Source: Naegleria gruberi (taxonomy: Eukaryota). Taken from it: DNA of 2,254 bases. Position numbers and translations under genes: made by a program. Location of the stretch: NCBI GenBank assembly GCA_000004985.1, contig GG739275.1; one strand, given 5' to 3'. Shown one piece after another: positions 1 to 2,254 of this stretch (position 1 is its first letter; each line of letters opens with the position of its first letter). Under the pieces are notes generated by a model, which was given only the letters and a program-made list of their open reading frames with translations, did not search any database and was not told the origin of the DNA.

Positions 1-250
1 ACAACCAAAACAACTTTTCAATTCTTCATCACTATCATCAATACTCGACACAATTCTCAGCTTTGTAACATCTCCCACAACACAAGTAAACTTTCTCTCA
101 TCATGCAAACAATTATATGAGGCAAAGAATTTCCTTCCGAAGAAGAGTTATCTACACAATATTCATCAACATTATTCTAAGATCATAAAGCAAAATGACA
201 AAGAAGCAATTTTGTATAGATTGGATGGTTTTTTACGGAATTTATATATT
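1..250 (+). promoter_or_regulatory. Upstream leader or promoter-like region. It is a CA-rich, G-poor tract typical of yeast 5' UTRs and carries out-of-frame upstream ATGs that form small uORFs at 102..188 and 195..254.
   Basis: Positions 1-110 contain about 5 G. ATG at 102 and at 117, same frame, runs to TAA at 186-188 (28 codons: MQTNYMRQRISFRRRVIYTIFINIILRS). ATG at 195 runs to TGA at 252-254 (19 codons: MTKKQFCIDWMVFYGIYIL) and overlaps ATG 251 out of frame. No TATA box, SD or -10/-35 is confidently identifiable. Confidence 0.4.
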
Positions 251-2077
251 ATGAATGGTGTGGAATTTGAACACGACATGATGGTCCACGATAATGAAGA
301 AACATTGGCCAAGATAAATTGTCATGTATTGAATGCTCATAACTATTATTTCAAGAATGGATTGATGGAGGTTTTGGGATTCTACTGTGAAGGAAGCTCT
401 GCGCATGAGGATGATGAAGATTCAGATGATGACAAAAATGACAGTGATAAAGAAGAGAAGTTCAAACCCAGTAATAGAGCGACGGATGGAATTGAGTATT
501 TTATCAAGAATTCATCGGTTCATGTGAAGTTTTTAACATATTCTGGTGAGCCAGTTGTCTTGCATCAAAATTTACACATCACAGGCACTGTTGGTCACTA
601 CTATTTGGCAAGAGAATTGGATGATTCTTCTTTGCTAACATTGGTTGAAATTACACAGAAAAGAATATTTGATATTCCTGCTTTTGAGAGTTTATTGTTT
701 TCTATTAAGGGAAATATTCAAATGGAAGTTTTATTTAGAATAATGCTTGGTATTGGAGGCATCACTTGTGTCGATTATTATTTGAACTTTATTCTCAATA
801 CTTATAATTATGTCAAAGAACCACCTCCTCCATCTAATAATAATAATGGAAAAACGAAGAATCAAAGTCCTATAATTAGTTATTTTGGAGAAAAAAAATA
901 TAATCGTAGAATAGATATTAATGATTATCGTCAATGTCCAGTGCCTTATCAACTAGATTCGTTAATTGACTTATTGAAATCAGGAGATGATTTAAGACAT
1001 ACGGAAAGAATGACTAAATATGTAATAGAATTAGTTTACAAATCGATGGCATCTTTTGCTTCCTATCCTAAAAAAGGCAACAAATACTATATTCCAGAAA
1101 TTGCAAATCAATTCATTTCAGGAAAATGCTTTTTGAAAAATGGAGAGTATAAATTCATAGTTACTTTGAGAAAGTCAAATGGTGGGAAATTCAAGCTTTT
1201 AATGTTTTTTCCTGATCATATAAATGGTGGAGATGATGAAGAAGTTTACGGGTATCAATATTTCAGGATTCTCTTGCTAGATAAATCAGAGAATAAGTTT
1301 TTAAGGGAGTGCTATTCGAATCGTAAAAGAAAGATCCAAAAGAAAGTGAAACAATTCATTGATGGAATATTGGAGGAAAATTTAGATTTCGAGTCTATTT
1401 GTGCCTGTATTGTCGGTTTGGTGTATAGTCGAGGATATCTTGTCAATTATATGAAACCTGGTAAAAGAGTTTGGAAAAATGTGCAAAATCTTGTACCAAG
1501 AAAAAGAAAAACTAAATCTGCCCCAATTCAAGCTGGTCAAATAGGAGATGATGGTTTGGATCTTGATCCTCTTACTATATTTTGGATAGATGAAGAGCTC
1601 ACTGCAGCTTATGATTATGGAGATGTCAAAACAATCAAAAATCCAAAAATCAAAGATGAAGCTTTTGAGTATGTCTCAAATCTCATTGCAAATTATAGAG
1701 CTATCAATAGAGATGACATAGACTATCAAACCTATGGAGCTTATAAGGATGCTCATGCCCTTTACTCGGAGCCAATAGTCGATGTCCATGATTTTGATTA
1801 TCAAGAAAAGAGTCTTTATTATGTTAATGGAAGGCACCATTATTGTGTTATTGTTAGTGGATATGACGAAATTGTAATTTGTGGAGAAGCTTCTAACGAA
1901 ATATTCTATTGGACTCCTTATTGTTTTTTCAGAGTTGGAGAACCAGAAGAAGGAACGTGTGATGAAACAGATACAAATTACGATTATTCACATCTGAAAC
2001 CTTTGAAAGAGCTCCAAAGTGTCACTTTTGATAATGTATTAGAAAATATAGAGGAATTTTTTGCTCAATTCAAATAA
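251..2077 (+). CDS. Hypothetical protein (about 608 aa from ATG 251), predicted nuclear. It has an acidic Ser/Asp/Glu tract, a Pro4-Ser-Asn4 run, two basic NLS-like clusters and a Tyr/Cys/His-rich C-terminal region. The true start is uncertain and the CDS may extend upstream beyond the window edge.
   Basis: One uninterrupted reading frame (window frame 2) runs to TAA at 2075-2077. Codon bias is consistent along the whole ORF: TTG/TTA Leu, AGA Arg, GAT, AAT, CAA, and a single in-frame CTG at 1994-1996. ATG 251 is the first in-frame ATG and has A at -3 (attATGa). Codon 212, used by the ORF track, is TTG. It has no SD and is not a eukaryotic start. The frame has no stop from position 2 to 251, so a 5'-partial CDS cannot be excluded. 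Confidence 0.75.
   Translation: MNGVEFEHDMMVHDNEETLAKINCHVLNAHNYYFKNGLMEVLGFYCEGSSAHEDDEDSDDDKNDSDKEEKFKPSNRATDGIEYFIKNSSVHVKFLTYSGEPVVLHQNLHITGTVGHYYLARELDDSSLLTLVEITQKRIFDIPAFESLLFSIKGNIQMEVLFRIMLGIGGITCVDYYLNFILNTYNYVKEPPPPSNNNNGKTKNQSPIISYFGEKKYNRRIDINDYRQCPVPYQLDSLIDLLKSGDDLRHTERMTKYVIELVYKSMASFASYPKKGNKYYIPEIANQFISGKCFLKNGEYKFIVTLRKSNGGKFKLLMFFPDHINGGDDEEVYGYQYFRILLLDKSENKFLRECYSNRKRKIQKKVKQFIDGILEENLDFESICACIVGLVYSRGYLVNYMKPGKRVWKNVQNLVPRKRKTKSAPIQAGQIGDDGLDLDPLTIFWIDEELTAAYDYGDVKTIKNPKIKDEAFEYVSNLIANYRAINRDDIDYQTYGAYKDAHALYSEPIVDVHDFDYQEKSLYYVNGRHHYCVIVSGYDEIVICGEASNEIFYWTPYCFFRVGEPEEGTCDETDTNYDYSHLKPLKELQSVTFDNVLENIEEFFAQFK
404..460 (+). repeat. Acidic low-complexity tract inside the CDS (HEDDEDSDDDKNDSDKEEK) with repeated GAT/GAA/GAC codons. 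It contains several S-x-x-D/E, casein-kinase-2-like sites.
   Basis: Codon-by-codon reading: gag gat gat gaa gat tca gat gat gac aaa aat gac agt gat aaa gaa gag aag. Confidence 0.8.
821..847 (+). repeat. Pro4-Ser-Asn4 codon run inside the CDS (cca cct cct cca tct aat aat aat aat).
   Basis: Direct reading of the in-frame codons. This kind of homopolymeric amino-acid run is typical of fungal and other eukaryotic low-complexity linkers and rare in bacteria. Confidence 0.85.
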
Positions 2078-2236
2078 AGATTTATTGACTCACTTTTGTT
2101 TATTTATTCATCTTGAAGGAATTTCACCATAATCTCAATGTTGTTTCTTACAAAGCTACATATCTATTTCCTATTGCATATTATTAACAATAACATTGTT
2201 GAACTGATTCATATTTTGCTATTTAAGGTTATGAAT
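2078..2236 (+). other. 3' UTR and intergenic spacer between the stop codon and the putative 5S start. It contains yeast-type UA-rich motifs plausible for 3' end formation.
   Basis: AT-rich sequence with tttatttatt (2099-2108), catatctattt (2158-2168) and a short palindrome aacaat-aac-attgtt (2186-2200). There is no GC hairpin plus T-run, so not a bacterial intrinsic terminator. No canonical AATAAA. The poly(A) site cannot be placed from sequence alone. Confidence 0.35.
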
Positions 2237-2254
2237 GGCTACGGCCATATCACG
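2237..2254 (+). rRNA. Probable 5' end of a 5S rRNA gene, truncated by the 3' edge of the window. Only the first 18 nt are visible.
   Basis: ggctacggccatatcacg is a GC-rich island (11/18 GC) in an otherwise AT-rich region. I compared it by eye with the conserved 5' end of eukaryotic 5S rRNAs as I remember them: budding yeast GGTTGCGGCCATATCTACC, vertebrate GTCTACGGCCATACCACC, insect ...CCATACCACGCTGAA. The 5-nt lead, CGGCC, and ATAYC spacing are all reproduced. Recognition is from memory, not a search, and the window ends before helix II, box A, IE or box C. Confidence 0.5.

Follow-up and report, generated by a model that had tools for sequence, protein, structure and literature searches.

The last 18 nucleotides of the window, the whole 2,254-nt stretch of Naegleria gruberi NEG-M DNA analyzed here and the full length of its scaffold, are very probably where one of the ordinary, dispersed 5S rRNA genes of this organism begins, truncated by the scaffold end. 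This kind of element is already known from the N. gruberi genome: 279 putative 5S genes were reported in the same JGI assembly (PLoS One 2012, PMC3369914). The 18-mer follows a protein gene, from which it is separated by an AT-rich spacer. The features are arranged as follows:

2..2077, plus strand: protein gene NAEGRDRAFT_76945, frame 2, 691 codons open from base 2, TAA stop codon at 2075-2077
2078..2236, plus strand: AT-rich spacer of 159 nt (25% GC), 3'-flanking sequence for the protein gene and 5'-flanking sequence for the probable 5S gene
2237..2254, plus strand: probable 5S rRNA gene, first 18 nt (GGCTACGGCCATATCACG), the terminal bases of the window and of the scaffold
2237-2245, plus strand: predicted 5' strand of helix I (GGCUACGGC)
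2246-2249, plus strand: predicted loop A (CAUA)
2250-2254, plus strand: predicted beginning of helix II (UCACG)

The composition of the DNA changes sharply at position 2237. The GC content is 61% in the 18-mer, 25% in the spacer and 32% over the whole window. The first-pass annotation had described a GC-rich break after an AT-rich stretch, about 160 nt beyond the stop codon of the protein gene; the break is present, and the distance measured from the TAA is 159 nt. In the register of a 5S RNA of the RF00001 type, the bases at 2237-2254 are correctly placed for helix I (5' strand), loop A (CAUA) and the beginning of helix II. Based on the composition of the window, the exact 18-mer is expected by chance 4e-9 times in the window and between 1e-5 and 8e-5 times in a 41-Mb genome. 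Among 200 shuffled sequences no match to the 18-mer was observed, even when up to three mismatches were allowed.

Indirect evidence comes from other places where the exact 18-mer occurs. In prokaryotic genomes (596 Gb) it was found eight times, which is about the level expected by chance, and none of the eight occurrences is in a 5S gene. It was not found in viral contigs. Fifteen metagenomic contigs contain the exact 18-mer, and in two of them (L014 and L012) it forms the start of a 5S gene, aligned from RF00001 position 1. Both of these genes pass the Rfam threshold, and their positions 1-18 are identical to the window at 18 of 18 bases. The 5S gene on L014 is full length (119 nt, 106.3 bits with RF00001) and is followed by a T-run, with the end reading ...GTAGTCTTTTAT; both the internal control region and the T-run terminator are present. 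The same gene was recovered from an independent sample as contig L034. The 5S gene on L012 scores 72.8 bits with RF00001 and is cut by the contig end. The flanking composition separates these genes from the other occurrences: all 21 occurrences outside 5S genes are in contigs of 42-69% GC that are apparently prokaryotic, whereas the two independent occurrences with an AT-rich flank (upstream GC 29-32%) are both 5S starts. The corresponding flank in the window is 25% GC. A longer query, the 45-mer from the 3' end of the window, has no match in the viral or metagenomic contigs, and our literature search found no paper with the 13-mer or 14-mer string. The earlier proposal that a dispersed Pol III 5S gene starts here is supported by complete identity to the 5' ends of two Rfam-validated 5S genes, one of them from a close relative of the source organism, and by the approximately 279 dispersed copies in the genome (PMC3369914).

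The 18 nucleotides are too short to be decided by a covariance model. Searches with Rfam returned no 5S match at E<=10, either for the whole window or for 2195-2254; the gathering score of RF00001 is 38 bits, which is out of reach for 18 nt without their base-pairing partner. We also used a covariance model, R1, made from six textbook eukaryotic 5S sequences (human, Xenopus, Drosophila, C. elegans, S. cerevisiae and Arabidopsis), all of them lacking the 18-mer. L014 and L012 were kept out of the model because both had been picked for having the 18-mer, which would have made the test circular. As controls, R1 scores 119 bits on L014 and 82 and 78 bits on L012. On the window it gives a single match, in which 2237-2254 align to model positions 1-18 and the match is flagged as cut at the 3' side; the score of 7.9 bits (E about 0.5) is not significant by itself. 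This low score against a general 5S model, together with the error-prone nature of scaffold ends, speaks for a chance match or an assembly-end artefact, in which the tail of a chimeric read was joined to the end of the scaffold. We consider this very improbable. A chance match is opposed by the expectation for the exact 18-mer per genome given above, and a chimeric tail would still have its origin in a genuine 5S gene of N. gruberi; only the linkage to the open reading frame would then be wrong and not the identity of the sequence.

The 18-mer can also be read as protein-coding sequence. It is in frame with an ATG at 2231 (MNGYGHIT...), and several prokaryotic contigs encode a conserved ...DGYGHIT... 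with the same 18-mer. In those contigs the 18-mer is coding sequence and contributes to a motif, ...GVIDGYGHITAR..., that is conserved in a family of prokaryotic proteins. Five of them (L004, L015, L016, L019 and L022), all GC-rich and prokaryotic, have common flanks of the form GGCGTGATCGAC-18mer-GCGCG...CTCAGC. The prokaryotic matches are GC-rich, however, and their flanks are unrelated to those in the window. Codon usage also argues against translation: the seven codons after ATG 2231 have a log-RSCU sum of -3.67, compared with 1.47 +/- 1.38 for seven-codon windows of the neighboring open reading frame, none of which is as low, and their GC3 is 71%, compared with 26% in that frame. If the downstream sequence resembled the L014 5S gene, the frame would stop after 28 codons. 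It appears that the occurrence of the same peptide in the prokaryotic motif and in this alternative reading is a coincidence. The first-pass annotation had named an open reading frame from ATG 2231 as the finding that would overturn the 5S assignment; with codon usage of this kind, we give it almost no credence.

The organism from which L014 derives can be judged by the gene next to its 5S gene. The two genes are divergent, and the unit was found in both samples:

L014 539-822 and L034 1375-1658: divergent 5S gene and ABHD11-like hydrolase gene, 165 nt from the 5S start to the ATG

This alpha/beta-hydrolase is most similar to proteins from Naegleria lovaniensis, at 58% identity, and Willaertia magna, at 52%. 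The next named relatives are far lower, with animal ABHD11 at 29%. Among the hydrolase orthologs, Naegleria and Willaertia differ by 57%, and a syntenic Naegleria-like contig is 73% identical to N. lovaniensis. These identities indicate that L014 derives from a vahlkampfiid separated from N. lovaniensis by roughly the distance between genera. Judged from these sequences, a member of the source organism's own family has a 5S gene that begins with exactly these 18 bases, and by analogy with this relative the 5S RNA of N. gruberi would begin with the same 18-mer. At the loci orthologous to the hydrolase gene, N. lovaniensis, W. magna and the Naegleria-like contig have no neighboring 5S gene, indicating that the positions of 5S genes vary among these amoebae. 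There is also no 5S gene beside the closer hydrolase relatives or beside the metagenomic homologs of the window's protein, and a further 30 kb of W. magna sequence contains none. Taken together, the sequence sampled from N. lovaniensis, W. magna and Naegleria-like contigs amounts to about 90 kb and has no 5S gene; at the density of N. gruberi, about one copy per 147 kb, the chance of such an outcome is approximately one half, and it says little.

When the window, L014 and L012 are aligned, the upstream sequences are unrelated apart from an AT before +1, and identity starts abruptly at the junction AT/GGCTAC. An abrupt start of similarity next to unrelated upstream DNA is as expected for a gene boundary, and the alignment fits one within 2 nt of position 2237. 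It is also compatible with insertion, although any conserved gene would be expected to look the same. We weighed the idea that the 18 nt begin a 5S sequence that is mobile or was retroposed, that the approximately 280 copies were spread by insertion beside Pol II genes and that a fresh insertion is seen here, 159 nt past a stop codon. This is quite unlikely. The first-pass annotation had pointed to the regions 5' of Pol III genes as landing sites for retrotransposons, an idea that finds no echo here, as nothing in the 159-nt spacer suggests one.

A broader formulation, that the sequence is 5S-derived but not a working gene, covers a truncated pseudogene or fragment as well as the head of a 5S-derived mobile element; we regard it as unlikely. 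5S-derived SINEs and the plant Cassandra elements, which carry 5S sequence, are examples of such mobile elements. Retroelements derived from 5S are known in other eukaryotes (10.1101/2023.07.14.548913). No such element is reported for Naegleria in the literature that we found. Partial copies do exist in the genome, as about 15 of the 279 entries in Table S1 of the published survey are shorter than 110 nt, and our view of the present copy ends at position 18; on the other hand, full-length copies make up about 95% of the list (PMC3369914). Moreover, the 18 nt agree at every base with a validated 5S start. We infer that the copy at 2237 is a complete gene interrupted by the scaffold end, and that it is expressed.

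The published description of N. gruberi 5S genes agrees with this assignment. The copies in Table S1 are mostly 117-nt matches spread across many scaffolds, and several are on tiny scaffolds or at scaffold ends, such as scaffold_594 1-86, scaffold_975 9-125 and scaffold_1194 88-204 (PMC3369914). The genes are described as having an upstream TATA box, whose position is not given, in addition to an internal control region and a T-run terminator; homologs of TFIIIC and TFIIIB were found in N. gruberi and TFIIIA was not (PMC3369914). A T was proposed as the first transcribed base of the N. gruberi 5S RNA (PMC3369914), with which the T at position 2236 is compatible. Papers on the extrachromosomal Naegleria rDNA circle list the 18S, 5.8S and 28S genes on it but no 5S gene, in agreement with 5S copies on the chromosomes. 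A Naegleria paper of 2025 (mSphere) mentions only bacterial 5S genes. Given the published dispersed family and the content of the rDNA circle, a chromosomal 5S copy beside a protein gene is the expected arrangement in this organism. The window agrees with this arrangement: it is part of the N. gruberi NEG-M nuclear assembly, the flank is unique and consists of a protein gene, and there is neither a tandem array nor an rDNA circle.

L012, the other contig with a validated 5S start, is organized differently. In the contig (1-1624), the 3' part of the 5S gene is at the beginning and the 5' part is at the end, indicating that the gene is tandemly repeated with a unit length of about 1.54 kb. Four tRNA genes are found in the same unit, and one of these is interrupted by a 31-nt intron. 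Between 1100 and 1330 a palindromic motif, GTGTCCCTAGGACACA, recurs about five times. The L012 5S looks animal-like.

The spacer upstream of 2237 contains two short TATA-like strings, read from the sequence:

2211-2217: TATA-like ATATTTT, -26 to -20
2220-2226: TATA-like TATTTAA, -17 to -11

Strings of this type are expected anyway in DNA of 25% GC and hence are no evidence of a promoter. Alignment of the window with L014 or L012 revealed no conserved upstream motif common to them. We infer only tentatively that the TATA-like stretches serve as the upstream element of the 5S gene. A scan of the spacer for bacterial-type promoters and terminators was uninformative, and no tRNA gene was found.

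The protein gene upstream of the spacer is probably itself incomplete at the other end of the scaffold. NAEGRDRAFT_76945 is annotated as a protein of 608 amino acids (P0005) that starts at ATG 251. A metagenomic homolog with 51% identity (P0002) aligns to residues 8-129 of the window translation, upstream of ATG 251, and the gene model is probably truncated N-terminally by the 5' end of the scaffold. Using HMMER, we found that a second N. gruberi protein, NAEGRDRAFT_76770 (EFC35574.1, P0001), encoded on a 7,416-bp scaffold, is 100% identical to the C-terminal 355 residues (window 1010-2077). It probably represents the same locus, either as a second allele or because the locus was assembled twice, in which case the 7,416-bp scaffold would carry the downstream sequence that is missing from the window.

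The 691-residue open reading frame has no Pfam domain above the cut-off (the best is HSM3_N, with an E value of 0.08), and in 1.8 billion representative proteins HMMER found no more than four relatives. A word-index homolog search with the window's protein returned nothing, although HMMER found the identical protein. The frame contains an acidic run, EDDEDSDDDKNDSDKEEK, and two basic runs resembling nuclear localization signals, NRKRKIQKK and PRKRKTKS. The product appears to be restricted to its lineage and has no known function. Residues 509-570 (window about 1526-1711) match 20 repeated segments in a 3,944-residue protein (P0003) of Candidatus Jettenia, an anammox bacterium, with an E value of 1.8e-10, and residues 517-651 match a small metagenomic protein (P0004). 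The C-terminal region of the frame may be an undescribed shared domain. Upstream of one homolog of the window's protein, on contig L028, there is a near-perfect 90-nt hairpin (729-819). Plant and animal miRNA models match it on both strands below threshold (41.5 versus 71 bits), and the hairpin is probably a palindromic repeat element and not a miRNA.

Eukaryotic 5S genes are transcribed by Pol III from an internal control region. For the dispersed 5S copy proposed here, transcription by Pol III would start from about 2237, or from the T at 2236, on the plus strand. The internal control region would lie beyond the scaffold end, as would the 3' strand of helix I, the remainder of helices II-V and the terminator. 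It would recruit TFIIIC and TFIIIB, possibly helped by the TATA-like element upstream. Most likely, the scaffold stops 18 nt into the gene because approximately 280 near-identical copies break short-read or Sanger assemblies. This reading adds one more, partial copy to the approximately 279 dispersed 5S genes already described, explains where the 2,254-bp scaffold ends and places NAEGRDRAFT_76945 directly upstream of a Pol III gene. Small unplaced scaffolds that are bounded by 5S repeats could in turn aid scaffold joining.

Compared with the dispersed 5S family of N. gruberi (PMC3369914), the sequence described here comes from the same genome and has a 5S-type 5' end, a single-copy AT-rich flank and candidate TATA-like stretches upstream, and it is located at the end of a tiny scaffold, as are several of the listed copies. 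It differs in comprising only 18 nt, too short to be listed by a BLAST survey, and the likeness is drawn from the features named. The vahlkampfiid 5S gene (L014/L034) shares positions 1-18, the preceding AT and AT-rich flanks. Both genes are tightly packed against a neighbor, 165 nt from the hydrolase ATG in L014 and 159 nt from a stop codon in the window. In contrast, L014 is from another organism, the neighboring genes and their orientation are different, and the upstream sequences are unrelated. Relative to the eukaryotic type of RF00001, the register is right, although no Rfam match is reported. The first-pass annotation had set a dispersed copy against the arrangement in many budding yeasts and taken it as a possible hint at the lineage; the source is a heterolobosean amoeboflagellate and not a yeast. 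The 5S gene of the Saccharomyces type belongs to the same RNA family and lies inside the rDNA repeat, whereas the 5S genes of Naegleria are chromosomal and dispersed.
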